From a virus, in the IMG/VR virus record IMGVR_UViG_3300028364_001588: DNA of 64,000 bases; one strand, written 5' to 3'. Each line of letters opens with the position of its first letter. The first letter of the stretch is position 1. The notes under the pieces are model-generated. The model saw only the letters and a program-made list of their open reading frames with translations. It did not search any database and had not been told where the DNA came from. The position numbers and the translations under genes are program-made. Below, in pieces: positions 5,040-38,026 of the stretch.

Positions 5040-5911
5040 AGACCTTGAGAAAGATTGAAGAACGTTTGCGCTCTATTAATATTGCTTCTCTCTTCTTTAA
5101 CATCAATGTTACCATCAGAAAACTGTTTCTTCCTTGTAACAAGATTGTATTGTCTATAAAGATTTCCATTGTCATCAAATATTGAGTAAACTCCAGTCTC
5201 AAGGTCTCTTGTTGAGTCTCCGTAAAGAACGTAGCTTAATGTTTTGATTGACTGGTCTACCATTTCAACTTCAACCATAACAGGGTCAAAGAAAGTGTTT
5301 GATATAAGTATTTGCTGACCTGATTTACCAAGGTCAGAACTAACAGTGTTGGTTATTAGACTTGCTTCATCTGGAGTAAGTGTAAGAAATAATTGATTTC
5401 CATTAGGGTCAATTACATAAGTAGTAGAACTTGCGTTTGTTGTGTTATTGTTTGGGTTAACACTTACAAGGTCAGAGCTTGTAATTATTCTATGAAAGTT
5501 TTTAATCTTAACACCATTATCATCAAAATACTCCATTTGGTATCCCACAAGACTTCCAGTGCTTTGAAACTGTAGCTTTGGTATGATTATACCTTTTTTA
5601 GAAATTTGTATCTCCTGGTCGTTATTTGTTATGACGAATGAACAGTCAACTATTTCTGTTTGAAATATTTTTGGCCTAATTAAAAGCAAGTAAAACCCAA
5701 GTTGGTTGAATATGCTGGCTGGAAGTCTTAATTTATATCCACCATCTCCACCAAGCATTTTTCTAAATTCATTATTAGTAACACTATTGTATATTGGTTG
5801 GAAACTTGTGTCACCAAGCGATTCTCTATTTGGAGAATAAGAATATAACACATCAACATCGTTAAAATCTGCGTCACTGAGCTTCACAGTACCATAAGTT
5901 CCTACAGCCAT
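5036..5911 (-). CDS. Putative baseplate/tail structural protein (MAVGTYGT...)
   Basis: 291-aa ORF, last gene of the minus-strand baseplate operon; its start overlaps the endonuclease stop. Confidence 0.6.
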   Translation of the reverse strand: MAVGTYGTVKLSDADFNDVDVLYSYSPNRESLGDTSFQPIYNSVTNNEFRKMLGGDGGYKLRLPASIFNQLGFYLLLIRPKIFQTEIVDCSFVITNNDQEIQISKKGIIIPKLQFQSTGSLVGYQMEYFDDNGVKIKNFHRIITSSDLVSVNPNNNTTNASSTTYVIDPNGNQLFLTLTPDEASLITNTVSSDLGKSGQQILISNTFFDPVMVEVEMVDQSIKTLSYVLYGDSTRDLETGVYSIFDDNGNLYRQYNLVTRKKQFSDGNIDVKEERSNINRAQTFFNLSQGL

Positions 5912-6837
5912 AGTTTTTCTTTTTTATATAAATAATCGGAAATAATTTTATTAACATTTTTTAAATCAAAATAAGGTATTCTCAAAAGGTTAATACCACT
6001 TTTTTTACAATACTCTGTTTTTAATATATCTCTCTGTTTCATTTCCTTAAACTTTATTTTTGCTATAGATTTATCAAAATATAACCTCCAAGGCTCATAG
6101 TGATATTCTCCATCGTATTCTATACATATATTATAATATTGTAAATAGAAATCAAATTTAAGGTGTCTATTTGTCTTAGCGTTCCTGCAATCATCAAAAA
6201 TCTTTTGCTTCTCAAAATCTACATTATTTTTCTTTAAAAATAAAGCCACTTTTCTCTCTCCTTTGGATTCAGAACACTTTTGACAACCAGAACCCATCAG
6301 ATGTATATATGGTTTTTGCTCAAACTCCCCGTGTATTGGACACATTATATTGATGGGCTTGTCATATCTTTCATAGGCAGTTTTCGAATAATCATATTTA
6401 TTATCATGCTTTTCTGATGCATCATCAATGAAGTCTTCTGTAGTCCTGCCGACTCCAGCGCATTTTGGACAACCATTTCCATTAAGGTGTTGATTTGGTT
6501 TCTGCGCAAAATCACCATGCTTAATACAACTAATAACAACTTTAATTTTATTTCCAATATATTTCACCTTTGAGTAGTTGTATCTATCTCCATGAACGTC
6601 CTTTGCTTTTTTAACAAACTCTTTAGTATTTCCGTTTTTATTTCCAGCGCAAATTGAGCAGCCATTTTTAGCTGATACATGTCCATTTGGACTTTGTTCA
6701 AATACACCATGGTCTACACATACAATTTTAATCTTCGTTGAGTTATTTTTGTAATTCACCAAAGAGTAATCATACTTATATCCATGGATGATTTTTGCTT
6801 TTTTAATAAATTCTTCTGTTGTTAGTTTTCTTGGCAT
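5902..6837 (-). mobile_element. Free-standing putative homing endonuclease: DUF723-type Zn-ribbon repeats plus Vsr/DUF559-like PD-(D/E)XK domain
   Basis: Three repeats of H.xxYDYSxxxY...IxCxxHGxFxQxPxxHxxGxGCxxC; C-terminal FDFYL...ICIEYDGEYHY...RDxxKxxYC...LLRIPY. Confidence 0.85.
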
Positions 6838-6866
6838 AAGCCTTTTATTATAAATACATAAGATTT

Positions 6867-6890
6867 TTAAAAATCAACATCAGCTAATTT
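6867..6890 (-). pseudogene. Stranded 5' remnant, part 2 (KLADVDF*), of the 5036-5911 gene
   Basis: AAA TTA GCT GAT GTT GAT TTT TAA matches KLSDADF (residues 10-16) of the intact gene. Confidence 0.7.
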
Positions 6891-6924
6891 TATATTGATT
6901 AAAAATATTTCCATATTTATTAAT

Positions 6925-7476
6925 ATGGACACTATCAGGCTTATAATTAGAGAAGAAATCCGCATCATATTAAACGAAGAACGTCAAGGTGGTGGCTTAA
7001 GTCAGTTTATTAAGAACTGGGGCGATTTTGTATTAGATATTTCTGATTATAGAGAACAAGATTTAGCACAGCTATATAAAGAGGGGGCCAATTCTCTAAG
7101 GTTTAATCTGGAACATAAAGAATTAATTTATCGTGGGATGTCAGTTAATGATGAATGGCTTAATCAATTTATGAAAAGTGATTCTATAAGGTTAGGTAAA
7201 TTCTGGTCTTTCGATAAAGTTGTTAGCAAAGATTTCATGCAAGCTCCAGATGTTTATGATGATGAATTTTCTAAGTTTAAAGGGAAAAATAAATTGTTTA
7301 TTATAGCTAAAGCTCCTGGGTATTTAAGTCATATTGATGTTGATGCTACGGTTGCTCATGGAATTGTCTCATCAGAAAGTGAATTAAGGCTATTAAAAGG
7401 CGCTCCACTTGACGTGGTTTCAATAAAGTTTAACGGCAAGGAGTTGAACTTCGAGAACAAGAATCTAACTTCTTAA
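6925..7476 (+). CDS. Putative R-S-E clade ADP-ribosyltransferase with N-terminal IRLIIREEI motif
   Basis: IYRGM (R), FWSFD (S) and ESELRL (ExE) in canonical order. ATG at 6925, 3 nt after TATTTATT. Confidence 0.6.
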   Translation: MDTIRLIIREEIRIILNEERQGGGLSQFIKNWGDFVLDISDYREQDLAQLYKEGANSLRFNLEHKELIYRGMSVNDEWLNQFMKSDSIRLGKFWSFDKVVSKDFMQAPDVYDDEFSKFKGKNKLFIIAKAPGYLSHIDVDATVAHGIVSSESELRLLKGAPLDVVSIKFNGKELNFENKNLTS

Positions 7477-7488
7477 TAAAAACACTTT

Positions 7489-7527
7489 ATCTGCTAATTT
7501 AACTGTTCCGTAAGTTCCTACTGCCAT
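7489..7527 (-). pseudogene. Stranded 5' remnant, part 1 (MAVGTYGTVKLAD), of the 5036-5911 gene
   Basis: 12 of 13 aa identical to the intact N-terminus, with many synonymous differences; retains a TATTTATA at 7543-7550. Confidence 0.92.
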
Positions 7528-7571
7528 AGTCTTTTTGTTTAATATAAATAATTCATAAAAAAAATAAAACC

Positions 7572-8402
7572 TTAAAGAGAAAACTCTATAAGTTCAAGGC
7601 CTCCATCTTCTTTGTATATGTCCAAATTTAGTTTTAAAGTTTCTCTCAAAGTAGAAAAATTAGATTCAAAAAATTCAAAATCAGTTTGTTTAGAGTTTAT
7701 TATTGTTTCATAAAGATAATTTGCTCCACCAAAATCCGTTATGCTGCCGTCTTTTAGTATTTGTTCTGCAAAAATTAAGAGCCTAAATGAATGCCAAATT
7801 TCCTTCACAGCCCTATATAAATCTCCATTTGAATTAAATTTGCTCTTGGCTATGTTCCAAAGGTCATCTGATTCGAATTTAACTTTGTTTATAAGTTTAT
7901 CACTATCTATGTCAACTGAAAAAGTCTTGTTGTCAATTATAATAAAATTTTCAGGATAGCTAAGAGATTCGATTTCACGCATTTCATGGTTGTCTAATTT
8001 GTTTTGAAAGTCTTCTTGAGAAAAAATGTGAACATCAAAATCGTTTCCATCTATATTTGTTTCTCTAAAAACGTTTCCACTAATATCAGTTGATATTGCT
8101 ATTAAATCCCAGTCAGAACCAACGCCATCAACACCATAAAGCCTTGAGCCTTTTACAGAAGCTAATTGTATTGATTCAATATTGACGCCTATGTTTTCAA
8201 ACACACTCTCAATATCAACAGGTAATTCAATCTTATCTGATGCAGATTTTAATTTAGAAACATTTAAAAAAACAGGGTTTATATCAATGTTTTTAACGAT
8301 TAGTTCTTGTTGTTTTTTGTAACCAATTTTAGTGTTTACGTTCTCATCTGTTTCGAGATTAATATCTACGAACCCTTGTAGTATAATATGTGTTCTTGCC
8401 AT
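7572..8402 (-). CDS. DNA polymerase beta-superfamily nucleotidyltransferase
   Basis: GSRLYG...SDWD motif, third acidic residue in DFDVH, helical C-terminus (WHSFRLLIFAEQI). Confidence 0.75.
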   Translation of the reverse strand: MARTHIILQGFVDINLETDENVNTKIGYKKQQELIVKNIDINPVFLNVSKLKSASDKIELPVDIESVFENIGVNIESIQLASVKGSRLYGVDGVGSDWDLIAISTDISGNVFRETNIDGNDFDVHIFSQEDFQNKLDNHEMREIESLSYPENFIIIDNKTFSVDIDSDKLINKVKFESDDLWNIAKSKFNSNGDLYRAVKEIWHSFRLLIFAEQILKDGSITDFGGANYLYETIINSKQTDFEFFESNFSTLRETLKLNLDIYKEDGGLELIEFSL

Positions 8403-8498
8403 TTTTATATTTATTTTACAATGTCTTATTTGCTACTGATATTTTAGCTTTTTTTTGATAAAACCTACTGCTCCATTAGATTTTAAAACTATAACTCA

Positions 8499-9140
8499 TC
8501 AATAATATCCGTAGCCGTAATTATCTCCTGTAGAATCATCTCCATTGTCTGGGATGAAATCATTCATCACTTCTGTTATATTTTCAAAATAAACCCTCGC
8601 TCTATCGGTTTGGCTATAGCTTCTTCTTATAAAAACAGGGATATAATAACTTGGTTCATATGTAAATGTGGTAAGCGCTGAAAATACTTTTAACTCTCGC
8701 TCTGTTCCGTTAATACTCAGAGGGATATGCTGAAGACCTTTTGATGGTGCTACACCGTTGTACTTAAAAGCTATAGTGTCGATTACAGTCATACCAGTTG
8801 TGCCAACAAGGCTGTTTTCTATAACTTCAGAAGGAGGAAACTGATTGTTCACAACACTTGAATTATAGTAATTATTAAACACATCTGACAATTTTTGGTC
8901 GCTATTGTAAATCTCTCCAAACTCAACAGTTGTTGTTGCTCCAGTTAAATAAGAATAAAAATCATTTATGATAACTAAGTTATCATTGTTATTTAAAAAA
9001 TTTCTAACATTAGAATAGTTAACAATACCGTTTCCAAGCCCTTGAATTTTATTCACCTGGTATCCATTCACATTTTGTAAAGTAGAATTAACTGTCGATG
9101 TTTCTCCAGTAAGTGTGATTAATATTTTGTGCTTTTGCAT
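8499..9140 (-). CDS. Hypothetical protein in baseplate operon
   Basis: 213-aa ORF, tightly packed in the structural operon. Confidence 0.6.
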   Translation of the reverse strand: MQKHKILITLTGETSTVNSTLQNVNGYQVNKIQGLGNGIVNYSNVRNFLNNNDNLVIINDFYSYLTGATTTVEFGEIYNSDQKLSDVFNNYYNSSVVNNQFPPSEVIENSLVGTTGMTVIDTIAFKYNGVAPSKGLQHIPLSINGTERELKVFSALTTFTYEPSYYIPVFIRRSYSQTDRARVYFENITEVMNDFIPDNGDDSTGDNYGYGYY

Positions 9141-9142
9141 TA

Positions 9143-9655
9143 TTATTTATTTATATCTATGTCAAAATAGTCTGCCTTAGATATTATATGATTTGGAACT
9201 ACGTTCACTTTATCAATATCATCAAGAGTTGTTTCTATTGGAGTTCCTTTGTTCCAAGGGAATTCGTTAATACCTATTTGGTCAAACCAAAATATAACTT
9301 CTGAATTACTCGCCTCAGAAACCTCTGCTCTAACGTCACGAATAAAATCAATCATATCATTTGTTAAGTCGCTTCCGTATCTAACTTTATTTTGTGTAAT
9401 ACCATCAAAGAAAGATAATTCAATAAAAAATGGATTAATCTCTTGCCTTGTAATTACCTCAATTTCTTCCTCTCTGTTTATTTGAACATATTCAAACACC
9501 TCATTTGTTCTCGTTAAAAATATAGGCAAATGAAAGTCGAATTCTGGATTGAAATAATATTTCTTATCTTTGTGTAAGAAATTCCAACAACCTGGAGCTA
9601 TCTCCACGGCATCAACGTAAATTTCGTATTGTTGTATGTTATCTATATTCTCCAT
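9143..9655 (-). CDS. Hypothetical protein in baseplate operon
   Basis: ATG at 9655, 4 nt after TATTTATA. Confidence 0.6.
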   Translation of the reverse strand: MENIDNIQQYEIYVDAVEIAPGCWNFLHKDKKYYFNPEFDFHLPIFLTRTNEVFEYVQINREEEIEVITRQEINPFFIELSFFDGITQNKVRYGSDLTNDMIDFIRDVRAEVSEASNSEVIFWFDQIGINEFPWNKGTPIETTLDDIDKVNVVPNHIISKADYFDIDINK

Positions 9656-9670
9656 CAATTATAAATAGTC

Positions 9671-11773: not shown

Positions 11774-11775
11774 AG

Positions 11776-14907: not shown

Positions 14908-14998
14908 TCTCTTTTATATTAAATATAAGCAAAGAAAAATATGAGATAAATAGTTAATCTCATTTTTTTCTAAATTTATAAAACCTTATTAAAAAAAT

Positions 14999-15332
14999 TT
15001 ATACTAAATTAATAGACTCAATTTTTTCTTTGACTGGGTTAAATAACAAAATGTTTTCAACACCACCTTCGGTTATAATAACCCCATCATAATTGCTGTG
15101 TAACCAATTTAAAACACCCCTCGTTCTTTCTATTAGATTTGAGGGTAGTTTTATAAACAAACTCACCATAACTTGAAGCTTCATTTTTATTTGGTGAAAA
15201 AAACGTCCCATCATAAACATGTCCTATATCATTAAAATCATGTTTATTTGGAGTCCCATGATAAATAACACTATGATTTTTATGGAGGATATTAGTTATT
15301 TCTTCTTGAATTATTTCACGAATCTTATTCAT
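14999..15332 (-). pseudogene. H-Y-E clade (polyvalent-protein type) ADP-ribosyltransferase-like gene with an out-of-frame internal deletion
   Basis: Frame A: MNKIREIIQEEI...IYHGT...GTFFSPNKNEASSYG...KSN. Frame B continues IERTRGVLNWLHSNYDGVIITEGGVENILLFNP. The frame switches near 15133. Confidence 0.6.
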
Positions 15333-16236
15333 GATTATAAATAGTTAATAATTCTTTTTTAGTTATTGAACAATTATGGTTTTTCATTAGATTATCTTCC
15401 CATGGAATCATTTCTAAATTTATAATATTTCCAATTATCTCTGGGTCTATATTATTTCTAAACCCTTTTGCAATCGAAAACCTATGGTCAAGGTGATAAT
15501 TTCCATCTACTCCAGCTTGACCTCTCTTGTTGTAGTTTTCTAATGTATCAAGAGGTTGTTGATTTGTTATTGTTCGAACTTTTTGATAATACTTCTTGAA
15601 TTCTGGGAGTATCTCTTGATATTTCTTATAGGTATATCCAGTTCTTTGTAGGTATATGTGGTCATATGCTCCAGATTCTTTTTTTAATTTCCTTGTTTTT
15701 CTTACTTTATTTTTATGCTCTTCAGATATAACCTTGTCGAGCATGCCTTTATGTTTATCTTCTACCCTAATTATATTTAACTTTTTAAGAATTTTATTCA
15801 CTCCAGAATATGACATACCAATGATATTTGCTACTTCTGGAATTGGTATTCCACTTAAGTAAAGGATTTTAATTTCTTCTGTTTTTGGATTTTTATAATT
15901 TTCTCTATATCCTGGTTTTCTTAAATCAACCTCATTATCTCTCAATATTTTCAGAACCGAAGGTTTAGAACACCCGATAATTTTAGCTATCTCAATTGAT
16001 GTTTTCTCTTCATTAACATATAAATAAACAACCTTGTCTACAGGAAGTTTACTACCTCTTTTAACGCCTTTTTTAGCTTTACTTATACTGCGTGTGGAGT
16101 ATCCGTTTCTCTTGATGATTTTTGATACTCCTGTAGAGCTTATACCAACTTCTTTGGCTACCTTTGTGGTAGACATCTTTTTATTGATGTATAAATCAAT
16201 TATTTTATCCTCTATTTCTTTGTTTAATTTTTTCAT
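15325..16236 (-). mobile_element. Putative homing endonuclease: three HTH repeats plus C-terminal HNH-like domain
   Basis: Repeated LY...S..EIAK..G.S...V.KIL units; YHLDHRFSI...NLEMIPWEDNLMK. Confidence 0.7.
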
Positions 16237-16303
16237 AATAAAAAAGTATCTATCTAATAATAAATAGAGACAAAAAAATAAAGTTAGAAGTAAAATTTCC
16301 TGG

Positions 16304-18199: not shown

Positions 18200-18209
18200 T
18201 TTCTATATT

Positions 18210-18623
18210 TTATTCATGAGAGTGTTCGTCTGCTCCAGATGAACCTGGGTCTACTGGTATAACAACACTTACTTCGTCTACTATTTCACCAAGGTCACGA
18301 GCTTTATAAACAACTTTAACCTCAAGCAAGTTTTCTCCCTCAATAAAATTAAATTTAATCTCTGAAACTTCTACCTCTGGTATAAACACGCCTATTTTTT
18401 CAATAAGCTCACCTTTTAATTTTGCTGCAGATATGTCATCCCAAAGCTCAAATATGTAATCCCACAAAGGAGAATACAACTGACTTCTCATAACTCTATT
18501 TCTTCTCTTTGTTGTGAGTAAAGAAATTAAGTTCGTCTGAATAGCTTCAAGTGATGTCACGTTCGACATGAACACGCCACCCTCTGTTGTTTCTTGAAAT
18601 GGGAATCTAATGCTAATAGGCAT
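18210..18623 (-). CDS. Baseplate gp25 / gpW-like protein
   Basis: IRFPF...IQTNLISLLTTKRRNRVM...LWDYIFE; adjacent to the gp6-like gene. Confidence 0.85.
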   Translation of the reverse strand: MPISIRFPFQETTEGGVFMSNVTSLEAIQTNLISLLTTKRRNRVMRSQLYSPLWDYIFELWDDISAAKLKGELIEKIGVFIPEVEVSEIKFNFIEGENLLEVKVVYKARDLGEIVDEVSVVIPVDPGSSGADEHSHE

Positions 18624-22568: not shown

Positions 22569-22579
22569 GTTATTATTTT

Positions 22580-24710: not shown

Positions 24711-24715
24711 GATTT

Positions 24716-27723: not shown

Positions 27724-27810
27724 GAAATTATATTTATTTCGATTAATTAAAGTTCTAACGTGTATTCGAAATAAATATAGAAAGCATAAATAGTAAAATA
27801 AATAGTTTTT

Positions 27811-27846
27811 AAAAAAAAGACCAAGAAATTAATCTTGGTCTTTTTT
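27811..27846. terminator. Bidirectional intrinsic terminator
   Basis: A8-GACCAAGA-N6-TCTTGGTC-T6. Confidence 0.85.
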
Positions 27847-27856
27847 AAATTTGTAA

Positions 27857-28050
27857 TTGCAGCGACTAAAGAGAGTCTAACAGCAGGCCAGACTTGTAAG
27901 CTTGTCCAGAATCAAATCCTGCCTTTTCAGCTTGTTCAGATTATCATCCTGCTTCTAAATTCCACGAGTCTTCCTGGGTCTTGTATTATGGTTTACGCAA
28001 GGTTACTGGTTTGCTCTCACTAATGTTAACCTTTTTTCGTGTCGCTACAA
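27857..28050 (-). ncRNA. Candidate structured ncRNA (~195 nt), family not recognised
   Basis: Ends pair (UUGUAGCGAC/GUCGCUGCAA). Nested stems GAGAG/CUCUC, CAGUA/UGCUG, CCA..GACU/AGUC-UGG and two tandem GCAGGAU..UCUG.ACAAGCU hairpins. More GC-rich than other intergenic DNA; followed by a terminator. Confidence 0.6.
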
Positions 28051-28056
28051 AACAAA

Positions 28057-28899
28057 TTATGCTTTATTTTCAGTATCTTCCTTAAGATTTGAATCATCTT
28101 CACCAACAGTGTCTCCATCAACTACTGCAGAAAAGAAAGTGTTATTATCCATTGCCATATTTTCAAGCGTAACATCTCCAAGAGAAGCTGACACTGAATA
28201 TGAAACATTGCTCATTTGAGCTCTTGACACAATACCTCTTGACAAAGTATCATAAGCTACAGAAGCACCTCCAGCTGTTGACGCATAGTTCATAGCGTTT
28301 CCAGAAGAAATACCAAATCTACTTGCAGCTAAAACAGCATCTTGATTTGCTCCCATGTAACTAAATGTCCAAGCTCCAGTTTTTTCAAGTTCACTAACAA
28401 TTTTTTTAATGGAGTCAGAACTATGCTCTCTCGAAGCGTTTTCGTCACCATCAGTCATAACAACAACAAGCGCTGTTGAAAGATTTTCGCTTTCTTTGTT
28501 TTTCTTATCCAATTGAACTCTAAGGTTTGAGATACCAACTCCCATTGCATCATGCAAGGCTGTACCACCTCTTGGAGGGAACTCTGTACCATCAAAGTTT
28601 TTAACACTTGAAATAGGTTCGTTTTCCAACACTGTGTCAATTTCTGTATCAAACACAACAAGAGATACAAAATATCTTTGTTCAGGATATTTCTCCTCAA
28701 GGTGTCTAATTGTTCCAAGCTGTTCATTTAATCCGCTAATTGTCGAATTCCAGCAAGAGCTCATAGAACCACTTCTATCTAACACTAATAAATAGTGTGT
28801 GTCTAAATTTTTGTCTACCGTTGTGGTAGTAGTTGTAACTACAGTTGTAGTCGTTTTTGTAACAGTCTTCTTTTTTGAATCTTTTTTGTTTTTTGCCAT
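28057..28899 (-). CDS. Stand-alone vWA (MIDAS) domain protein
   Basis: LVLDRSGSM, GGTALHDA, VMTDGDENASRE, YMGANQDA. Confidence 0.9.
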   Translation of the reverse strand: MAKNKKDSKKKTVTKTTTTVVTTTTTTVDKNLDTHYLLVLDRSGSMSSCWNSTISGLNEQLGTIRHLEEKYPEQRYFVSLVVFDTEIDTVLENEPISSVKNFDGTEFPPRGGTALHDAMGVGISNLRVQLDKKNKESENLSTALVVVMTDGDENASREHSSDSIKKIVSELEKTGAWTFSYMGANQDAVLAASRFGISSGNAMNYASTAGGASVAYDTLSRGIVSRAQMSNVSYSVSASLGDVTLENMAMDNNTFFSAVVDGDTVGEDDSNLKEDTENKA

Positions 28900-28983
28900 T
28901 GTGTAATTTTTTAATAAGTAATTCTAAATACTATTTAAAAAAAATTATGGACATAACAAAGTGTTTTTGAAAATTGAGGTAAA

Positions 28984-29703
28984 TTATTTTTTCTCCTTAT
29001 CTCCAACAAACAAATCCTCTATAAAAGAAGGGTTAACATCTCTAATAGATTTGAAGCTATGTTCAACTTCATCGTACTGATTAAATGGGTGCTCTATTTT
29101 TATAATAGTTTTTCCTTTTGGTACATTTTGAATAACTTCAGGAACACAATCAATTATAATATCACAATAATCCCATTTTTCATAATCCTCTTGAATGAAT
29201 GCTATGTTTCTAACTCTACACGCATTCTTTGCAAGGAAGTGAAATGTAGCTGGAATCGCTTTACTATCTGTATTAGATATAAGAATTGTTTTATAAAGAT
29301 TATTTTGAAGCCCGTAAGCCTGAATTCTGTTTAGCGCATCTGAAGCTCCTTCATACTCATCAGCGTCTCCATATATCTTGAAGGGCTTGATGTTGTTCAT
29401 GAAGTTTAAAAGAGCCTCTTCTGGTGATAATACAGTTTCTCCATCAAGAGCAATTTCCTCTCCGAACTTGTAGTGGTTGTTCAAGTTGTATGTATTAACT
29501 GGAAGAGATATAAGCTCTTTCTCTTGAAGGTTTATTCTTTTTTCAAGATTTTCCAACTCTTCTTCAGTGTTCTCCTTTACAGTCATATCTTTGTTCATCT
29601 CTACAAGAGATGGATTGTGGATATATTTACTTCTGTATTGTTTATCAAACGCACTATGAAGGTCTCTCAATACTCCGTCAATGCTAATTCCTAATGTTTT
29701 CAT
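28984..29703 (-). CDS. HAD-superfamily 5'(3')-deoxyribonucleotidase-like protein with degenerate motif I
   Basis: GISIDGVLRD (DxD changed to SxD); KWDYCDIIIDCVP...HPFN. Confidence 0.65.
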   Translation of the reverse strand: MKTLGISIDGVLRDLHSAFDKQYRSKYIHNPSLVEMNKDMTVKENTEEELENLEKRINLQEKELISLPVNTYNLNNHYKFGEEIALDGETVLSPEEALLNFMNNIKPFKIYGDADEYEGASDALNRIQAYGLQNNLYKTILISNTDSKAIPATFHFLAKNACRVRNIAFIQEDYEKWDYCDIIIDCVPEVIQNVPKGKTIIKIEHPFNQYDEVEHSFKSIRDVNPSFIEDLFVGDKEKK

Positions 29704-29749
29704 TTTCTAAATTTATAATGTCCTGGTAAATAGTTGTAGAAATTTAAAC

Positions 29750-29779
29750 AAAAAAAAGAGGAATATCAAATTCCTCTTT
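29750..29779 (-). terminator. Intrinsic terminator following the stranded 3' remnant
   Basis: AAAGAGGAAT-TTG-AT-ATTCCTC followed by T8. Confidence 0.75.
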
Positions 29780-29783
29780 CATC

Positions 29784-29822
29784 TTATTCAAATGTTGTAT
29801 ATCCTCCACGTATGAAGTGTAT
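29784..29822 (-). pseudogene. Stranded 3' remnant (IHFIRGGYTTFE*) of the A1-like gene
   Basis: Matches the current C-terminus IHFIRGCFTTLD* on the far side of the endonuclease. Confidence 0.9.
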
Positions 29823-29856
29823 TTATATAAATAAAATTTTTACCTATTTATAAATT

Positions 29857-30726
29857 ATGAAAACAAATAAGTTTATAGAAGAGTCGATTAAAATTCATGG
29901 AAATCGCTATAATTATAAAAACACAAAATACACAAACGCAAGAACTAAAATTAAAATAATTTGCCCAGAACACAATGAGTTTGAACAGTTGCCTGGAAAT
30001 CACAAAAGAGGTAATGGATGTCCTAAGTGTATTTATAACAAATTAACTAAAAAAGAAGTTTTAAAGCAATTTAAAAAAATACATGGAGATAAATATGATT
30101 ATTCTTTAATTGATTACAATGGAGATAATGTTAAAGTAAAAATAATTTGTTCAGAACATGGAGTATTTAAACAAGTTCCAGGAATACACAAATTAGGTAG
30201 TGGTTGCAAAAAATGCGCTGGACTTGAGAAATTAGATAATGAAAAAGTGGTGGAGCAATTTAAAGAAACACATGGAGATAAATATAATTATTCTTTAATT
30301 AACTATATTAATGCTCATACAAAAGTTAATATTATATGTCCAGAGCATGGAAGGTGGAGACAAACTCCAAATAATCATAAAAACGGAAATGGGTGTCCTA
30401 TATGTAAAGAATCTAAAGGAGAAAGAAAAATCAGAAATTTATTAAATGAAAATAAAGTCAATTTCATCTCGCAATATAAATTTAAAGATTGCAAAAATAT
30501 ATTGCAATTACCTTTCGATTTTTATTTACCAGAATATAATATATGCATTGAATACAATGGAATGCAACATTATAAACCAATTGAACACTTTGGGGGTAGA
30601 CTTGGTTTCAAAAAAAGAATTATTAATGATAATATAAAAAAAGGATATTGTGAAAAAAACAATATCCTTTTAATAACTATTAACTACAACGAAGATGTAG
30701 AGAAAAAACTTAATCTAAAGTGGTAA
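29857..30726 (+). mobile_element. Free-standing putative homing endonuclease: DUF723 repeats plus Vsr/DUF559-like domain
   Basis: Same architecture as 5902-6837; LPFDFYLPEYNICIEYNGMQHY. Confidence 0.85.
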
Positions 30727-32335
30727 AACACCCTCGTATAAAGTGTATCTGCTGGGCTTTTCCATCTGAGTGAATAATTGAGTGTGATTGCAACCACGGG
30801 CTTGCTCCAATATTATATCCAACTCTAAGAATTGTAGAAGTTCCTACTTGAATTACTCCATCCATACGGCCTGGAGAGTGTGAATGTCCAATAATCATTT
30901 TTGTACTCAACTTTCTAAACTGAACAATTGACCCACGACTACCTGAAGCTCCGATGTCTCCATGTTGTCCAACTTCCCATTCATGAATTCTATGAGTGTG
31001 GCTTCTGCCCAGTGTAATGAAATTAGGAAACTTTTCGTTAATCAAATAAGGAATAACTCCATCTGGAGCATCTTCCCCAAGCAACAAAGCCGCATAGTTC
31101 ATGTAACAAAGAGAGTTTTTCATTGTTGACTCTTTTCTCCAATCAACATCTCTAAGCCATCTGTCAAGGAAATCATCATGATTACTTCTAACTATGACTG
31201 TCTTATATTCTCTGAATGCCTCAAGGCCATCAAGCATAAAATCAATCTCTTTTTTAAGGTCGTTCTTTCCAGAGATTTCCTTTTTGTATTGAGCAAACGC
31301 ATCCTTTCTGTCGTGATGACTAATAGAGTGTCCGTCAAAAACATCATGAAGAACTACCTCTTTAGGCTTCAGCTTTTTAAACAAAACATTTAAAGTTGTA
31401 TTCATTACATCTTTATCTGTTTCGCCAAAGTGAATATCCCCAAGAATAGCGCCATCAATAGACTTATTTCTCTTTATAACTGTTTTACCAATCAACTCTT
31501 CTCCTTGAAATGTTAGGCCAGGTATTAAATCAACCTCTTCATAACCACCATCAAAAGACACATTATAATAAAGGTCGTTAAAATTACCATCTTCCGTTGC
31601 AGTGACTTGCCTTGTGTAAAAAACTTCTTCATCTTTAATCTCAACAACAACAAAACCAAGGGTGTGGTGAAACTCTCCTTTCTTTCCTGCTTTTGAGTCT
31701 GTATAATTTTCTAAAGTTACAGCTCCAGTTGTCATCATCATCTTTGGTGCTGTACCTTCTAATGCAGAAACCATTTTCATTTGCATCTTAGGGTGTCCAA
31801 ATATAGATGATTCTGGTCCAGAAAAACCTTCCAATGCTGTCATTGGGTTTGTGGCTGTAGGAGAAATTTTGACATCACCACAAACAATCAATCGCTTGTG
31901 AGCATTTTGTCTTGCGGCAAATAAATAAGGCTCTACTCTTGAGTGCCATGATTCAAAATCTTTATCATCAAATACAGATGTTGGATTTTTGTATCTACCA
32001 GCTATTATATGAACTTCTGCGTTAATCTCTTTTGCATAAGCTTCGATATTTCTAAGAAACACTTCGTGTACTGGAGTGTTGTTTTGTGCCCATGTAAATA
32101 TGAATCTCTTAGATTTTTTGCTAATCTTTTTCTTTTTAGCTTTTTTGAACTGGGGTGAATCCTCAGTAGCAGTTTTTTTAATTCCAAGCTTTACAAGCCA
32201 GTTTCGAGTTGTTTTTTCGCCTTTTCCGAAAAATTGCATTAACTCACTTATCCTTTCGTCATAAGCTAAATTGGATGAATAATAAATCTCCTTCGCATGA
32301 AGAATATCATCCTCTGTTAGTTTTTTGAATTTCAT
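30710..32335 (-). CDS. T5 A1-like protein (HTH plus calcineurin-like metallophosphoesterase/nuclease)
   Basis: TWAQNNTPVH, GDIH, HDVFDG, SNHD, HGD, GHSHSP. Start reassigned to ATG 32335 (MKFKK). Confidence 0.75.
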   Translation of the reverse strand: MKFKKLTEDDILHAKEIYYSSNLAYDERISELMQFFGKGEKTTRNWLVKLGIKKTATEDSPQFKKAKKKKISKKSKRFIFTWAQNNTPVHEVFLRNIEAYAKEINAEVHIIAGRYKNPTSVFDDKDFESWHSRVEPYLFAARQNAHKRLIVCGDVKISPTATNPMTALEGFSGPESSIFGHPKMQMKMVSALEGTAPKMMMTTGAVTLENYTDSKAGKKGEFHHTLGFVVVEIKDEEVFYTRQVTATEDGNFNDLYYNVSFDGGYEEVDLIPGLTFQGEELIGKTVIKRNKSIDGAILGDIHFGETDKDVMNTTLNVLFKKLKPKEVVLHDVFDGHSISHHDRKDAFAQYKKEISGKNDLKKEIDFMLDGLEAFREYKTVIVRSNHDDFLDRWLRDVDWRKESTMKNSLCYMNYAALLLGEDAPDGVIPYLINEKFPNFITLGRSHTHRIHEWEVGQHGDIGASGSRGSIVQFRKLSTKMIIGHSHSPGRMDGVIQVGTSTILRVGYNIGASPWLQSHSIIHSDGKAQQIHFIRGCFTTLD

Positions 32336-32365
32336 AAATTGTTGTCTTATTATTTCTTCTAAGTG

Positions 32366-32397
32366 CAAATTAAAGAAAAAAAAGGCAACCAAACAAA
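32366..32397 (-). promoter_or_regulatory. Near-consensus Bacteroidota promoter (TTTG-N20-TTAATTTG)
   Basis: Directly upstream of the A1-like gene; one mismatch in the -7 box. Confidence 0.45.
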
Positions 32398-32400
32398 TAT

Positions 32401-33224
32401 TTATCTACTTTTTAAAATCTTAACCCACTCATCAAGACTCTTTTCTGGTCTCCAATTCAGAACTTTCTCTGTATCTGAGGGAAATTCTTCTGAAGTAAAT
32501 CTTTCTCCTTTTCTTTCTGGAATCATGATTACATCATCACTAAATTTCTTGGCAAGTTCAATCAATTCAACATTTTGCCCAGAACGAAGCATCCACTCTC
32601 TGTTTAAATTCATGTGAGTTGTCATCTCAACTCCACGAACAACGTCTTCAACGTGTGTAAAATCTCTTGATTGAGTTCCAGGAGAAACCACAGTAATTGG
32701 CCTGCCTTCTTTCATAATGTTTTTTGTCTGCGGAAACCCAATCATCACGAAGTGTGGTTGGGATGAGCAGGCCTCTTTTTGTTAGTATACGACAAATATA
32801 CAAAAAAAATTTAATTAATTTCAAGTTTTCTTTTTTTTATCTGCACCACCATTTCCAAATTTAGAACTACTGGCTGAATAAATTATTTTTGGCACCTTTT
32901 CTTTTACAGTATTCAATAACTTCAGATGTACCACGAAGATTTGATTTCATAACATACTCTATGTCATCAAAGCTTTTGACAATTCTTGAATATTCTCCAA
33001 GGTGATATACGATGTTTGGGTTAAACTGAGTTGTTACAAATCTAAGGTTTTATTTCCCAAGTATTTCCATGAACATAGTGAACGCCATCAATGTGATTAT
33101 CTCTACTCCCTGTGAAGTAATTATCAAGAGCCATTATTTCAGCATAAGGATGCTCTTCTTTTAAATGCTTTACCAAGTGAGTTCCTATAAACCCAGCCCC
33201 GCCCGTTACTAATATTTTATTCAT
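32401..33224 (-). pseudogene. NAD-dependent epimerase pseudogene (two frameshifts; centre replaced by a promoter/leader)
   Basis: ILVTGGAGFIG...; shifted frames give VYHLGEYSRIVKSF and IIYSASSSKFG; the YxxxK region is missing; the C-terminal half GTQSRDFTHVEDV restarts at ATG 32715. Confidence 0.85.
32793..32824 (-). promoter_or_regulatory. Bacteroidota sigma-A-type promoter (TTG-N21-TATATTTG) inside the epimerase pseudogene
   Basis: Exact -7 box at 32800-32793; TTG at 32824-32822. Confidence 0.65.
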
Positions 33225-34254
33225 GTTCTAAATCATATTTAACCATTCTTTCAACAAGTTCGTCAAGGTCAACTTTTGCCTCCCATCCAAGAACCGCTTT
33301 TGCCTTTGATGGGTCTCCAATTAACCTATCAACTTCTGCTGGTCTAAAATACCTTGGGTCCACCTCTACAAGCAGGTCTCCAGATTCTTTGTCGTAACCT
33401 TTTTCATTCACACCCTCACCTCTCCATTCAATATCCCAACCAAGATGTTTAGCTGTCATCTCAATAAATGTACGAACTTTATAAGTTCTACCAGTTGCAA
33501 GAACAAAATCTTCTGGCTTATCCTGCTGCAACATTCTCCACATTCCCTCTACATACTCCTGAGCATGTCCCCAATCTCTTTCTGCCTCCATGTTGCCAAT
33601 AGTCAAAACCTTACGCTTGCCTTTTTTGATTTGAGCCATGTTGGTTGTAATCTTTCTTGTAACGAATGTTTTACCTCTTCTCTCACTTTCGTGATTAAAC
33701 AAAATTCCATTGCATGCAAATAAATTATAGGATTCACGATAATTCTTGATTATCCAAAAACCATAAAGCTTAGCGCAGCCATAAGGGCTTCTTGGGTGCA
33801 TCGGAGAGTTCTCGTCATAAAAACCTTCACTGTTCTTGTTATACTCAAGCCCTCCATATAATTCAGAGGTTGATGCTTGGTAAAACTTAGCACCAGGACA
33901 ATGCGCTCTCATTGCTTCAAGAATAGTAAGCGTTCCAAGTGCGTCTACATTTGCTGTATAGTGAGGTACTTCAAAAGAAACTGCAACATGCGATTGAGCT
34001 GCCAGGTTATATATCTCATCTGGCTGAGTCTCTGCAATAAGCCTCATAATGTTTGAGGGGTCTGTAACATCTCCGTGATGAAGATGAAGTCGCTCGTGGT
34101 CCATTATGTGTTCAATTCTTTCTGTATTGAATGTACTTGCTCTTCTCATTGTTGCATGCACCTCATACCCTTTTTCTAAAAGAAGTTCCGCAAGGTAAGA
34201 ACCATCTTGTCCTGTAACGCCCGTAACCAGGGCAATTTTGTTTTTTTCTATCAT
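33217..34254 (-). CDS. gmd: GDP-mannose 4,6-dehydratase
   Basis: [64 protein letters not shown] 34254 overlaps the endonuclease TGA (ATGA). Confidence 0.97.
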
Positions 34255-35066
34255 ATTTCCCACTTATATTTGTATTGTTCCATTATTCCTTTTTCGGGTG
34301 TAATCCATTTCAAAAAAGCAATTGTATCTTTTTTATCAAACCTTATTCTATTTCTACTTGTTACTGATGGTTTAAATCCTTTTTTATTTAATTTTTCTAC
34401 TAAAAATTGATTATCTTCTTTTGTAAAAGAATCTGTGCATAAATAAACATTTCCATCAGTTGTATAACCGTCTCCAACAAACCACCAATAGCAAGATTTT
34501 GGTGTAATCAAAATATCTCTTGGCACTATTTTTTCTTTTTTTGGATACCATCTTAAATTTTCACTCAATAAATCATGATACATATTAGATTTGGAGTGAT
34601 AACATTTTGTATGTTCGCTTTGCCAAATTGGACTAAAATCAATAGAATGTAATTCTTTAAAAATCTCTTCTGGAGTTTCTTTAAACTTAAAGCCAAAAGT
34701 CAATCTTGCTGATATTCTTGATTTTTCAGATAAACACCCGTCACTTAGTAATAATCCATCTAAAACCTCTTTTTCTTCATTACTTAAATTACAGTACCTA
34801 AATTTAGAATCATCCCATTTACTTGATTCGCTCATTTTTTCTTTAGACTCTTCTGAATGACTTTTTCCATAAAAGGCGTTTAAATCACCTTTTCTGCCCT
34901 TTTTTTTATTAACTTCATCTGAATACTTTCTACCCTCACCTTGTTGGCCATTATATCTTCCAGAACAAACTCTGGAGCAAAACTCTTTTTCTCTTTCTCT
35001 TTTTCTTTTGGGATTAAATTCAAACTCTTCATTACATAATTTGCATTTCTTTTTTTCCTTTTCCAT
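34251..35066 (-). mobile_element. Free-standing LAGLIDADG homing endonuclease with Zn finger and NUMOD3
   Basis: CKLC..FCSRVC; FYGKSHSEESKEKMS; LDGLLLSDG and WWFVGDG. Confidence 0.85.
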
Positions 35067-35101
35067 AACTTTTTATTATAAATAGTTATAAAAATTTCTA
35101 T

Positions 35102-35143
35102 TCCAGCAATACCTGTTATAAATGCATTTTATATTCTTCGCAT
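35102..35143 (-). pseudogene. Stranded 5' remnant of a gmd allele (MRRI*NAFITGIAG)
   Basis: ATG CGA AGA ATA TAA AAT GCA TTT ATA ACA GGT ATT GCT GGA aligns with [10 protein letters not shown] of Gmd; one in-frame TAA. Confidence 0.75.
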
Positions 35144-35415
35144 TTTAATTTTTCTCTTCTATAATAAAAATCGTTATCATATTCATCTTTTATAAATTCT
35201 CCAACAGTTAAATTTGATAATCTAATTCCAATTGTAGGTGAATACATATAATTAAACAACATTTCTAAATTACTATTAGTTGCCTTCATAAATGATTCGA
35301 TGTTTAATGTGGATTTAATTCTATTATAATAATCCTCTTTACCTTCAAACATTTTCTCGTTTACTATTTTTAACAACTCCGCTTCTACGTCTATACCATA
35401 TTTTTTCATATCCAT
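35116..35415 (-). CDS. Hypothetical protein
   Basis: 99 aa, coupled to the ColD-like stop. Confidence 0.5.
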   Translation of the reverse strand: MDMKKYGIDVEAELLKIVNEKMFEGKEDYYNRIKSTLNIESFMKATNSNLEMLFNYMYSPTIGIRLSNLTVGEFIKDEYDNDFYYRREKLKCEEYKMHL

Positions 35416-36596
35416 TACTTAATTGCGTCAGTTACTGTTTTACAAATAAACTCTATTTCCTTCTTGCCCATCTTAGGGTGATTAGGAACATAAATACCAC
35501 AGTCATCGACTGTTTTTGCATTTAGAGTTTCGTGTCTACCATATCTTTTGATGAAGAAAGGTTGAGTTCCCATTGAGCCGCAGATAAGTGGTCTACACTC
35601 AACATCAGCTTCAATAAGTGCTGCTACAGCTTTTTCTTTATCTTTCTTAGATTGGAATATCATTGGATAACAAAAAGATGCTGTGAATGAATCTTTGTGC
35701 TCTGTCGGCTTCCATATTTTCTTTTTCTTGTCGTATGATTTAATTGCATCCAAGAAGTAGTAGAAGTTTTCGTTTCTTGTATCAATCATGTCATCAACTT
35801 TATCAAGCTGCTTAATTCCAATTACTGCCTGAAGGTCTGTTGACCTAAGATTGAATCCTGGCTCATAGAAAGTGTATAAGGCAGAGAATTCATCCACTCC
35901 CCACTTAGTTCTTAATCTTTGTTGAGTCGCTGAGTCAAGGTCTCTATCCCACCCATGACTTCTAAGCATTACAAGAAGGTCATAAACATCTTTATCGTTC
36001 GTACAAACCATTCCGCCCTCAATAGTACTCATTGTATGGCCGAAGTAAGTTGAAAACGATGACATCAATCCAAAGTTTCCAAGACGAACTCCGTCAAACT
36101 CAGTTCCTTGAGATTCACAATTGTCTTCGAGAAGTTCAACTCCATAAGTTTTACAAAGTTCAACAATCTTATCCATATCTGGAGAAAGACCAAGAACTGA
36201 AACAAGAATCATTGCTGCAGGTTTGTGGTGTCTAAATATAGCTTCAAGTTGACTTACATCAACAGCAAGATTATTCATGTTACAATCAACGATAAGAGGG
36301 TCGAATCCAAGTTGGATTACTGGAGCCATATCAGTTGCCCAAGCAAGAGCTGGAACCACCACTTTATTATTTCTTAGGTTACCCATCACTTTAAGCGCAT
36401 AAAGCATGAGAAGGTTCGCTGAAGAACCAGAGTTTACAAATACAGAATATTTACTACCAATCCATTTGGACCATTTCTCTTCAAATTCTCTCGTTTTTGG
36501 TCCCATAGTCAAGCGGGGCGCTGGTTTTTGAGACAACCACTTTATAAGGTTTGCAATATCCTCATCATCTATTGTGTCTTTTACTAATTTTATCAT
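35415..36596 (-). CDS. colD: DegT/DnrJ-fold PLP enzyme, ColD-like GDP-4-keto-6-deoxymannose 3-dehydratase
   Basis: VNSGSSANLLM, EDNCES, LRSHGW, PGFNLR. His replaces the Schiff-base Lys (FSTYFGHTMSTIEGG). Start reassigned to 36596. Confidence 0.75.
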   Translation of the reverse strand: MIKLVKDTIDDEDIANLIKWLSQKPAPRLTMGPKTREFEEKWSKWIGSKYSVFVNSGSSANLLMLYALKVMGNLRNNKVVVPALAWATDMAPVIQLGFDPLIVDCNMNNLAVDVSQLEAIFRHHKPAAMILVSVLGLSPDMDKIVELCKTYGVELLEDNCESQGTEFDGVRLGNFGLMSSFSTYFGHTMSTIEGGMVCTNDKDVYDLLVMLRSHGWDRDLDSATQQRLRTKWGVDEFSALYTFYEPGFNLRSTDLQAVIGIKQLDKVDDMIDTRNENFYYFLDAIKSYDKKKKIWKPTEHKDSFTASFCYPMIFQSKKDKEKAVAALIEADVECRPLICGSMGTQPFFIKRYGRHETLNAKTVDDCGIYVPNHPKMGKKEIEFICKTVTDAIK

Positions 36597-36601
36597 AATT
36601 T

Positions 36602-36895
36602 TTATTTTTGATTTATAAACATATTTGCTATACACTTTGAAATAATATTCAAATTTTCTTTAAAGAAATCTTCACCTTCTGGAGAACTATTCCAAAACAT
36701 AAATCCTGGAGTATTTTCAATTTTTTTCATTTGTTCTATATTTTTTTTTGACACCTCTTCATCAACTCTTAACTCTAAACAAATATTTTGTCCTAACTGA
36801 ATTGTTCCTTGGTCGTCTTTTTTTAAATAACCAACCATACCAACTGGCATTTCTGTTTTAAAAACTTCTTTAAAATAAACCTCTCTTATTGTCAT
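36602..36895 (-). CDS. Hypothetical protein carried with the GIY-YIG endonuclease
   Basis: 97 aa between the endonuclease and the regenerated colD start. Confidence 0.55.
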   Translation of the reverse strand: MTIREVYFKEVFKTEMPVGMVGYLKKDDQGTIQLGQNICLELRVDEEVSKKNIEQMKKIENTPGFMFWNSSPEGEDFFKENLNIISKCIANMFINQK

Positions 36896-37888
36896 TTATA
36901 TTTCGTTTAATTTTTTATTTAACCCGTTCTTTATTAAAAAATTATTATAAGCATCTGCAGCTTCAATCTCTGTATCAAAAGTTCCAACATACTTATGTTT
37001 TCCATTATTCCAAACACTTGTCTCCCATTTATCTTTTTTAGCTCTATATGTTACTCCTGTGAATTGAGAGGAAAACTTCTTAGAGATGTCTATGCTCTTC
37101 CAGTCTTTTATGTTGTTTAATTTTGTCTCATCTCCATATAGCTCATAAGCTTTCTGGTTGTATGCAACAGCTGCATCAATTTCTTTTTTGAAGTGTCCAA
37201 TAATAATCGACTCTCTATCAAACCTCAGCGTAGCTCTATAAAGCTTTTGAGTAGATATGTAGCTTACTCCTATAAAATTGGAACTTGAACTGTCGTGTTT
37301 ATAGCCAATTCCATTTTTAGAAATCTTGTCTTTAATCTCTTGACTATGTGTCCTGCCCAAATTTATCTCTCTCAATTTTTCTTTTGTCTCGTCAGACATC
37401 TCCCTGCCCTTATTTGCTTCAGAGATTTTCCTACTAATCTCCTTTTTCTTTTTCTCAGAGAAGTTAGAACGTGTCTTCATCATTTTCTTTTTCACCTCCT
37501 CTGGGGGCTTTCTTCCAAGAAGCTTTCCTTTGTTGCCTTTAGAAATTTTTCTCTTTGTTTCCTCCGATAAAATCCTTCCAGTAGCGCCTTCTCCTCCGTC
37601 TGTAGCATTAACCAAAATTCCTTTACTCTTATCCGCTCTTCCGAGTAATTTTATATAAAACTCCTCAGCGTAATTACATCTACCTTCACTCTCGCAAATT
37701 TTAACCAGTTTTATCTCTGGCAATAAACCTTCCTTTTTGAGAGACTTAATCCAGTTGGTCTTATGAGTTCTTGATGAGTCTTGCATGTGCCCATTCATTA
37801 GTCTATAAGTTAACTTCTTAGTGGTTTTGCCCACGTATCTAACTTCTCCAGCCCTTGGGTCAATTAGAAAATAAATTTTGTATTCCAT
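36896..37888 (-). mobile_element. Free-standing GIY-YIG homing endonuclease with NUMOD3 repeats and two AP2 domains
   Basis: KIYFLIDPR..EVRYVGKT, N.TDGGEG, SEETKRKIS repeats, FIGVS...EIDAAVAYN and FTGVT...EIEAADAYN. Confidence 0.9.
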
Positions 37889-37921
37889 AACTATAAATAG
37901 CTAAAAAAACTAAATTATTAA

Positions 37922-38026
37922 CTAACCTTTTGTAAGTCTTGGGTAGGTTTTTAACCATTCGATTAAGTTGTCTACATCATCTTTGTCGATGGTGTCTTTT
38001 ACGAGTGCAATTTTTTCTTTAGCCAT
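37922..38026 (-). pseudogene. Stranded 5' remnant (34 aa) of a colD-like allele
   Basis: MAKEKIALVKDTIDKDDVDNLIEWLKTYPRLTKG* versus the intact MIKLVKDTIDDEDIANLIKWLSQKPAPRLTMG. Confidence 0.93.

Follow-up and report, generated by a model that had tools for sequence, protein, structure and literature searches.

Within T4-like phages, the MobA/gene 60 bypass cassette was reportedly described by Bonocora et al. in 2011. The Seg and Mob endonucleases of these phages cleave an adjacent gene in a related co-infecting phage, and their own genes are then copied along with flanking markers, as intron-less homing and marker exclusion (PMC2988022). In fungal mitochondria, the so-called mORFs form "gene hybrids" with atp6 in Allomyces macrogynus, atp9 in Rhizopus, cox2 in Mortierella and atp6, atp9, cox2 and nad3 in Glomus; a LAGLIDADG or GIY-YIG open reading frame (ORF) carries a foreign C-terminus and the native end is left stranded, identity to a close relative being about 91-98% for the native end and about 64-81% for the inserted one (PMC3630166). 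Here we describe four loci in a 64,000-nucleotide stretch of viral DNA (the window; bases 18246-82245 of the 101.5-kb IMG/VR virus record IMGVR_UViG_3300028364_001588), at each of which a free-standing homing-endonuclease gene (HEG) runs at its 3′ side into its own copy of a short gene end, with the native end and its own promoter or terminator left on the 5′ side of the HEG (Table 1). Our reading, held with a probability of about 0.78, is that these loci are terminus-replacement cassettes of homing endonucleases, carried by what is probably part of a jumbo-phage genome.

As the HEG carries its own copy of the gene end, the host gene stays intact with neither an intron nor an intein. In the N-terminal cassettes the HEG is co-oriented with the host gene and lies upstream of it, and in the C-terminal cassette the two are convergent. 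All four cassettes of the window have the gene end twice, once as part of the gene and once stranded, and duplicated ends were also found in the contigs L012, L014, L016, L037 (twice), L092, L117, L143, L145 and L147. The stranded copy resembles the gene end of relatives and the joined copy is divergent for GDP-mannose 4,6-dehydratase (gmd), the A1-like gene (A1) and the ColD-type aminotransferase (colD); the pattern is weak for the fourth host gene, which we call the structural gene after the label used in the original prediction.

Table 1. Features of the four cassettes in the window (positions in window coordinates; a slash within a protein motif marks the break)
Feature	Position	Strand	Description
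Host gene 1	5036-5911	(-)	291 amino acids; without assigned family; "structural" is the label of the original prediction
Replacement start of host gene 1	5873-5934	(-)	promoter-like motif (5934-5927) and first 13 codons of live gene
HEG 1	5902-6837	(-)	three treble-clef zinc-finger repeats (DUF723/DUF4379) and EDxHD/Vsr-like nuclease domain
Remnant candidate of the original prediction	6867-6914	(-)	MEIFLINIKLADVDF then stop, ending ...IKLADVDF; beside HEG 1 promoter
Passenger ORF	6925-7476	(+)	183 amino acids; strand opposite HEG 1; between remnant and HEG 1
Native start remnant of host gene 1	7489-7550	(-)	TATTTATA (7550-7543), leader, ATG at 7527, 13 codons (MAVGTYGTVKLAD), then break
Native A1 C-terminus remnant	29750-29822	(-)	IHFIRGGYTTFE and stop (29822-29784), then terminator hairpin
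Cassette edge of A1	29820-29852		14-nucleotide palindrome TATTTATATAAATA and second TATTTATA 4 nucleotides before HEG 2 start
HEG 2	29857-30726	(+)	DUF723/EDxHD-like; convergent with A1
Replacement A1 C-terminus	30710-30748	(-)	last 12 codons and stop; live end IHFIRGCFTTLD then stop
Host gene 2	30710-32335	(-)	A1-like DNA-transfer/phosphoesterase protein (phrog_1745)
Host gene 3	33217-34254	(-)	GDP-mannose 4,6-dehydratase (gmd); PF16363, E = 7.5e-143
Replacement gmd N-terminus	34207-34254	(-)	16 codons up to Gln; ATG overlaps HEG 3 stop (ATGA)
HEG 3	34251-35066	(-)	LAGLIDADG_2 (I-SceI-like) and NUMOD3
HEG 3 TATTTATA motif	35084-35077	(-)	5′ of LAGLIDADG gene
Native gmd N-terminus remnant	35099-35143	(-)	MRRI, in-frame stop, NAFITGIAGI; broken inside GxTGQ/DG dinucleotide-binding motif
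Host gene 4	35415-36596	(-)	DegT/ColD-type aminotransferase (colD); PF01041, E = 7.9e-66
Replacement colD N-terminus	36501-36596	(-)	MIKLVKD...SQKPAPRLTMG
Passenger ORF	36602-36895	(-)	97 amino acids; between HEG 4 and colD; only in window and G001
HEG 4	36896-37888	(-)	GIY-YIG, NUMOD3 and AP2
HEG 4 TATTTATA motif	37899-37892	(-)	5′ of GIY-YIG gene
Native colD N-terminus remnant	37922-38026	(-)	34-codon ORF ending ...YPRLTKG and stop

Relatives for comparison were drawn from IMG/VR and from metagenome assemblies. Two of them are collinear with the window, namely G001 (IMGVR_UViG_3300049783_001779, also L001; about 80-86% nucleotide identity) and G002 (IMGVR_UViG_3300009130_001605; ~65%); a third of the same group is IMGVR_UViG_3300033119_002206 (L012 and L035), and a fourth is the Logan contig L143. 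CheckV rates G001 as 14% complete at 46 kb and G002 as 23% complete at 76 kb, and the virus is therefore probably a jumbo phage with an inferred size of ~300 kb. The window has a guanine-cytosine (GC) content of ~34%, and megablast of its positions 28000-39000 and 3500-9200 against INPHARED gave no match, so that no deposited phage genome is close.

G001 lacks three of the four HEGs, and G002 lacks all four save for a gutted LAGLIDADG gene. At the sites without an insertion, remnant-like sequence joins the gene body directly: for the structural gene and A1 in G001 and G002, for colD in G002 and L012, and for gmd in G001. This is the outcome that the original prediction expected of insertion-free relatives, and for the structural gene, A1 and colD the empty sites resemble the remnant and not the replacement, as the identities given below for each locus show. 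The window derives from a metagenome, and the duplications could in principle be chimaeras of strains created in assembly, a risk raised with the prediction itself. We regard this explanation as practically negligible, since contigs from three assemblies (MEGAHIT from ENA, Logan and JGI) show 100% identity to the window along 6.9-7.0 kb that take in every tested junction, agreeing there base for base, and since the same architecture recurs in many unrelated contigs.

The four endonucleases belong to three families, as had been predicted, and profile and fold matches agree on this. HEG 1 and HEG 2, which share 43% amino-acid identity, match phrog_559 at 1e-73 and 1e-79. The AlphaFold model of the DUF723 type has a pLDDT of 91, and the best solved matches of its C-terminal domain are the catalytic domain of I-Bth0305I (PDB ID: 3r3p; TM 0.66 on target) and Vsr, so the earlier label "Vsr-like" holds. 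An alignment of 25 DUF723 homologues shows three Cys/His repeats and invariant E194, D229, E240, G243, H246 and D270. HEG 3 matches the LAGLIDADG_2 profile at 6.6e-17, and the first 100 residues of HEG 4, the part scanned, match the GIY-YIG profile PF01541 with 25.2 bits against a cut-off of 22.6. Sequence searches of the PDB with the three HEG types gave weak matches at most (for instance I-SceI, E = 0.07). Each HEG has its own start and stop and none lies in frame inside a host protein. A window-wide Rfam scan found no family at its gathering score, an intron search of 4500-8600 and 28500-39000 gave no match with E <= 1, and neither a ribozyme core nor intein splicing blocks were found around the HEGs, which sets them apart from HEGs borne by group I introns or inteins. 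The insertions are thus intron-less and lie in coding DNA near a gene terminus, as originally proposed.

The association of nuclease and target extends well beyond the window. LAGLIDADG relatives from viral contigs (41-65% amino-acid identity) all lie immediately upstream of gmd, with overlapping stop and start codons, and the pairing persists in contigs that differ in GC content and gene context; the L143 gene, ~74% identical to that of the window at the nucleotide level, is likewise directly 5′ of gmd. Remnants of gmd stand directly 5′ of the HEG and end after the same Gln codon (GxTGQ/DGSYLAE), reading KTVLITGIPGQ in L012, MQNRALITGITGQ in L014 and HITGFTGQ in L016. L143 has the remnant AFITGITGI with the same break codon, and in G002 the remnant MSKNKTAIIFGITGQ is followed by a 245-nucleotide wreck of the HEG; the break codon is therefore common to six lineages (window, G002, L012, L014, L016 and L143). 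The Rossmann pattern of the window remnant has 4 occurrences in the six frames of the window, and the other 3 are real SDR (dehydrogenase) genes. The live N-terminus of gmd is 64.6% identical to G001, the lowest value of any 16-codon window of the gene (mean 83.7, rank 0.003); ungapped gmd comparisons with L012, G002 and L147 were left out because indels misaligned them. The break falls in a conserved motif, as predicted, and that of colD likewise falls at the start of the DegT domain.

A similar picture emerges for A1. The last 15 nucleotides of the remnant are those of the live end of G001, and the terminator is common to G001. Over 39 nucleotides, remnant and G001 agree at 31 positions, remnant and live end at 29, and live end and G001 at only 25. 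The live end is 64.1% identical to G001 compared to 86.9% for the rest of the gene (rank 0.009 of 530 windows), and its last 17 nucleotides also encode the C-terminus of HEG 2 on the opposite strand. It shares TGTTTTACCAC with the HEG-linked allele of L012, and is nearer to that terminus (71.8%) than is the rest of the gene (61.2%). DUF723 relatives converge on the C-terminus of A1 in L035/L036, L037 and L056, where the HEG is degenerate. In L037 the A1 remnant, INFINGEYTTLT followed by a stop and the terminator, begins at the same codon as that of the window, and the palindrome TATTTATATAAATA recurs at the equivalent cassette edge. The N-terminus of A1 in L037 has a second cassette, consisting of a 46-codon remnant ORF, a DUF723 HEG and then live A1.

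Three further observations concern A1 and its surroundings. The palindrome at 29820-29833 is perfect and yields the TATTTATA motif on both strands. L037 carries, at 2303-5745, a single A1-like gene with cassettes at both ends and an extra GIY-YIG gene just upstream. In G001, a 76-amino-acid ORF (5480-5710) between A1 and its terminator is absent from the window and G002.

The colD remnant stops 22 nucleotides before TATTTATA and the GIY-YIG gene. It aligns gap-free to the native N-termini of L012 and G002 (26/34 amino acids and 73.5% of nucleotides for L012), compared to 61% identity to the live N-terminus, and the 34-amino-acid stub was called as a gene in two independent assemblies. All GIY-YIG relatives whose context was fetched (58-82% amino-acid identity) lie directly upstream of colD; they came from protein search and contig look-ups, a pattern search of viral contigs having found none. 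The junction of L143 is that of the window, with only six remnant codons kept. Otherwise the break varies: it comes after RLTKG in the window, after ...NLIE in L145, where an opposite-strand 152-amino-acid ORF follows, and after ...YPRL in L147, whose remnant is set ~1 kb upstream and separated by four small ORFs. In L145, remnant and live copy differ at 10/59 nucleotides, all of them synonymous. The 97-amino-acid passenger of the window is absent from L143, L145 and L147; a cargo family common to the four was considered and rejected, as their passengers are unrelated by BLASTP. As a separate observation, G001 has ORFs of 67 and ~150 amino acids between colD and gmd (1267-1890), homologous to L012 ORFs, the second of which reads in frame into gmd with no stop.

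These three loci bear on whether a foreign donor is needed at all. Insertion of the HEG could instead have produced two copies of the terminus on the spot, for example through staggered or template-switch repair, and these would have diverged afterwards. The gmd cassette appears to have been inherited vertically in the window and L143, yet the live ends are identical at only 16/30 positions compared to 28/30 for the remnants, so a live copy can evolve fast in place. Divergence in place, however, would not bring the live A1 end closer to the HEG-linked end of L012 than to that of the close relative G001, when the rest of the gene shows the reverse order (71.8% vs 61.2% and 64.1% vs 86.9%), nor does it sit well with a 2-codon insertion in live colD that is shared with G001, L143 and L147 and absent from native alleles and remnants. 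We therefore think in-place duplication improbable and prefer replacement of the terminus by an incoming one.

The fourth cassette differs in where its remnant lies. The structural gene is 93% identical to G001 and 64% to G002 in amino acids. BLAST of G001 against the window aligns one 64-nucleotide G001 stretch to both 7553-7490 and 5936-5873, which places the true remnant at 7550-7489. This remnant agrees with G001 at 36/39 nucleotides and with the live copy at 27/39, and in G001 and G002 the remnant-like sequence runs on into the gene body without interruption. The original prediction was right that a remnant exists and had placed it beside the promoter of HEG 1, probably at 6914-6867. That stretch is borderline, either a second, older remnant or a chance match: its protein score of 34 reaches the 99th percentile when set against a null drawn from the whole window, and its nucleotide score lacks significance. 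The true remnant lies ~650 nucleotides from HEG 1, with a passenger between them that has no Pfam or PHROG family, has viral hypothetical proteins as Atlas neighbours, and is absent from G001 and G002 at this site. On the gene side, the motif and ribosome-binding region of the structural gene fall inside the 3′ end of the HEG 1 ORF, and the HEG stop overlaps the start (ATGGCTGTAG). The live start agrees with G001 at 28/39 nucleotides compared to 85.1% for the rest of the gene (rank 0.12). In L069, a HEG 1 relative (60% amino-acid identity) stands directly upstream of a structural-gene homologue that is 68% identical. We also observed that two unrelated passengers, at 6925-7476 (+) in the window and 2956-3414 (-) in L145, share an amphipathic N-terminal leader (MDTIRLIIREE... 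and MNIRKIIREV...).

The motif TATTTATA had been taken as part of the cassette architecture, a part of the prediction that does not survive. It occurs 27 times in the window against 7.65 expected, and 15/27 copies lie <=45 nucleotides 5′ of an ATG opening an ORF of >=45 codons, compared to 17% of random positions, ordinary non-HEG genes being among those it precedes. Judged by this distribution, TATTTATA is a general start-proximal, promoter-like motif of the phage and not a cassette feature. The short spacing proposed between remnant and motif stands for colD, gmd and A1, where it is 0-25 nucleotides; the solid remnant of the structural gene lies farther off, at the distance given above.

Duplicated termini were also sought beside endonuclease genes in general, a check proposed with the original prediction. 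A blind scan compared 300 nucleotides on each side of 86 non-redundant HEG loci; remnants of 10-13 codons are below its sensitivity. Measured against a cross-locus null, flank-to-flank similarity lies above the 99th percentile at 16 of the 86 loci and above the maximum at 7, the clean duplications including L092 (N-terminal) and L117 and L127 (opposite-strand C-terminal). As a control, a 1.3-kb intergenic insertion in the window relative to G001 (14983-16303), without a recognised nuclease domain, shows no flanking duplication. Phage genomes are mosaic, and ordinary recombination scars might by chance lie beside endonuclease genes that played no causal part. Chance, however, would hardly tie the same nuclease family to the same gene and codon across distant contigs, enrich duplications at the 86 loci and leave the nuclease-less insertion without one, nor would bystander HEGs be expected under strong purifying selection, and we consider this account very improbable. 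A duplicated 90 nucleotides near 30.0-30.7 kb of G001 was rejected as a cassette, being an internal repeat of a fibre-like gene. The control insertion itself encodes a 303-amino-acid protein with several helix-turn-helix domains like the DNA-binding modules of HEGs, plus small ORFs.

The cassettes are old. Window and L143 are about 75-82% identical across HEGs and host genes alike, the HEGs have a ratio of non-synonymous to synonymous change (dN/dS) of 0.07-0.13, and their synonymous differences, 0.6-0.7 per site and near saturation, are similar to those of host genes. Since the HEGs co-diverge with the host genes and are under purifying selection, these are not recent scars. The remnants, by comparison, are unexpectedly well conserved: the gmd remnant (window 35067-35137, L143 5837-5909) is identical at 28/30 nucleotides and the colD remnant end with the HEG leader (window 37889-37948, L143 3442-3500) at 51/59, far better than the synonymous sites of neighbouring genes. 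The live gmd N-terminus, as given above, agrees at only 16/30.

LAGLIDADG enzymes cut at or next to their insertion site. The same is true of the EDxHD enzyme I-Bth0305I (PMC3239194), and I-TevI, the Seg proteins and other GIY-YIG enzymes make their cut some distance away, with long resection following (PMC2988022). On this basis we propose that the nuclease would cut cassette-free alleles near the junction and that the break would be repaired from a cassette-bearing co-infecting genome, with the gene body as one homology arm and the remnant plus any upstream synteny as the other. The divergent private terminus would shield the resident gene from cutting and lower repeat-mediated loss. A cassette probably first arises through a rare one-sided illegitimate join, which would occasionally re-create it in a new context, bringing cargo ORFs with it; later persistence would be by descent and by two-armed homing, with the remnant as a short left arm.

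The original prediction was stricter, with homologous repair towards the gene body and illegitimate joining towards the promoter. In its strict form every cassette would stem from a one-sided event in its own lineage, with the broken end recording the point of cleavage and resection. The colD family fits this well, with three different break codons (NLIE in L145, YPRL in L147, RLTKG in the window) and different, unrelated cargo between remnant and HEG, as does the structural-gene cassette with its opposite-strand ORF in that position; homing of the T4 td intron provides, moreover, a documented case of one-sided illegitimate repair at microhomologies (Parker et al. 1999, as relayed in PMC2988022). 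It is the fixed junctions of gmd and A1 that do not fit. At gmd, six lineages that have diverged to very different degrees share both the junction and the opening bases of the element; the window and L037 agree in their A1 junction; and at colD, junction and leader match at 51/59 positions between the window and L143. Independent illegitimate joins would not hit the same base repeatedly. Illegitimate joining is thus not the rule for all events, and the strict form is unlikely. On their sequences, the gmd and A1 cassettes and the colD cassettes of the window and L143 look inherited, or copied with the remnant as left arm. Fixed gmd and A1 junctions beside scattered, cargo-bearing colD junctions fit enzymes that cut at the site and at a distance, respectively, which favours a rare illegitimate origin followed by two-armed persistence.

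Several points weigh against reading the loci as terminus-replacement cassettes. The account of cutting and immunity is extrapolated from the behaviour of known LAGLIDADG, GIY-YIG and EDxHD enzymes. The replacement terminus of the structural gene is no statistical outlier, and no clear remnant was found in L069 (a 2-3-codon match) or L035 (a 5-residue match), neither of which we counted. Live gmd still has an intact GQ/DG junction, and among the HEG-linked alleles compared there is no consistent "immune" spelling of it. The short remnants comprise 24-39 nucleotides each. Finally, cassettes and host genes diverge at about the same rate in the window and L143, a pattern that gives no sign of recent horizontal movement within this clade, and loss could account for part of the patchy distribution.

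A broader joint reading, which we hold tentatively and would put at rather less than an even chance, is that terminus replacement is a widespread and long-lived HEG strategy, used by at least three families in phage coding DNA without splicing, and that the "dead" remnant has a function of its own. Lying beside the HEG promoter, this half-site could act as an operator for autoregulation, by analogy with I-TevI at its own promoter, or alternatively could be maintained as the left homology arm. If so, the live terminus would be under diversifying selection to escape cutting, and the overlap of HEG and gene would serve as an anti-deletion device.

Two neighbouring features of the window-source genome deserve mention. 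An NAD-dependent epimerase/dehydratase gene at 32401-33224 (-) is broken into an N-terminal piece (33224-33042, 60 amino acids) and a C-terminal piece (32748-32401, 115 amino acids); in G001 it is intact (289 amino acids), with ~48 nucleotides of extra sequence. About 7.6-8.2 kb before the window start, a 572-nucleotide insertion relative to G001 holds a weak DUF723-type nuclease-domain remnant (tblastn E = 1e-4).

If the cassettes work as proposed, selfish nucleases can enter essential or conserved phage coding DNA without a ribozyme or intein, which opens more sites to them. Strong purifying selection on the nucleases suggests that they matter in the competition of co-infecting phages. Cassettes of this kind account for "recoded" gene ends and short orphan ORFs on which annotation pipelines go wrong, and phylogenetic work should allow for phage gene termini that may differ in history from the gene body. 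The enzyme-target pairs defined here (LAGLIDADG with the GxTGQ/DG codons of gmd, GIY-YIG with the colD N-terminus and EDxHD with the A1 C-terminus) could also yield new site-specific nucleases.

The original prediction knew of no description of a general, family-independent strategy of this kind. One exists for the LAGLIDADG and GIY-YIG mORFs of fungal mitochondria (PMC3630166), and our search, within the literature available to us, found no phage description of terminus-duplicating HEGs. Like the fungal elements (PMC3630166), the cassettes consist of a free-standing ORF with a foreign gene end and a stranded native end, are independent of endonuclease family and have similar identity figures. 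The mORFs replace C-termini only, whereas three of the four cassettes replace N-termini and the start codon with them, one of them a promoter-like motif as well; further differences are the phage hosts, the third (EDxHD/Vsr-like) family, the overlap or translational coupling of HEG and gene, and the cargo ORFs. With T4 Seg and Mob (PMC2988022) the cassettes share intron-less phage genes of GIY-YIG and HNH type, but those genes are intergenic, have no duplicated terminus, and owe immunity to target polymorphisms and not to a private replacement terminus. One-sided homing of the T4 td intron, as relayed in PMC2988022, provides an experimental route into a site with one-sided homology, through microhomology joining after resection; it used engineered substrates and an intron, and alone does not account for the fixed gmd and A1 junctions. 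As in T4 MobA/gene 60 (bioRxiv 10.1101/2022.08.31.505936), the HEG travels with an extra piece of sequence within a coding region, which disrupts the target site and lets the gene work unspliced, but there the rescue is a 50-nucleotide translational bypass and a gene split, not a duplicated, re-spelled terminus. The DUF723 HEGs share with I-Bth0305I and the EDxHD family (PMC3239194; PDB ID: 3r3p) a Vsr-like fold of the C-terminal domain and conserved acidic and His residues; I-Bth0305I is encoded by an intron in phage recA, whereas they are free-standing and have three zinc-finger repeats as DNA-binding module. Four points go beyond the described systems: the clustering of four cassettes within 32 kb, the replacement of N-termini, the conservation of enzyme-target pairs and the oddly well-kept remnants. 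The main new result is the recurrence of the LAGLIDADG-gmd, GIY-YIG-colD and DUF723-A1 pairs in distant viral contigs.

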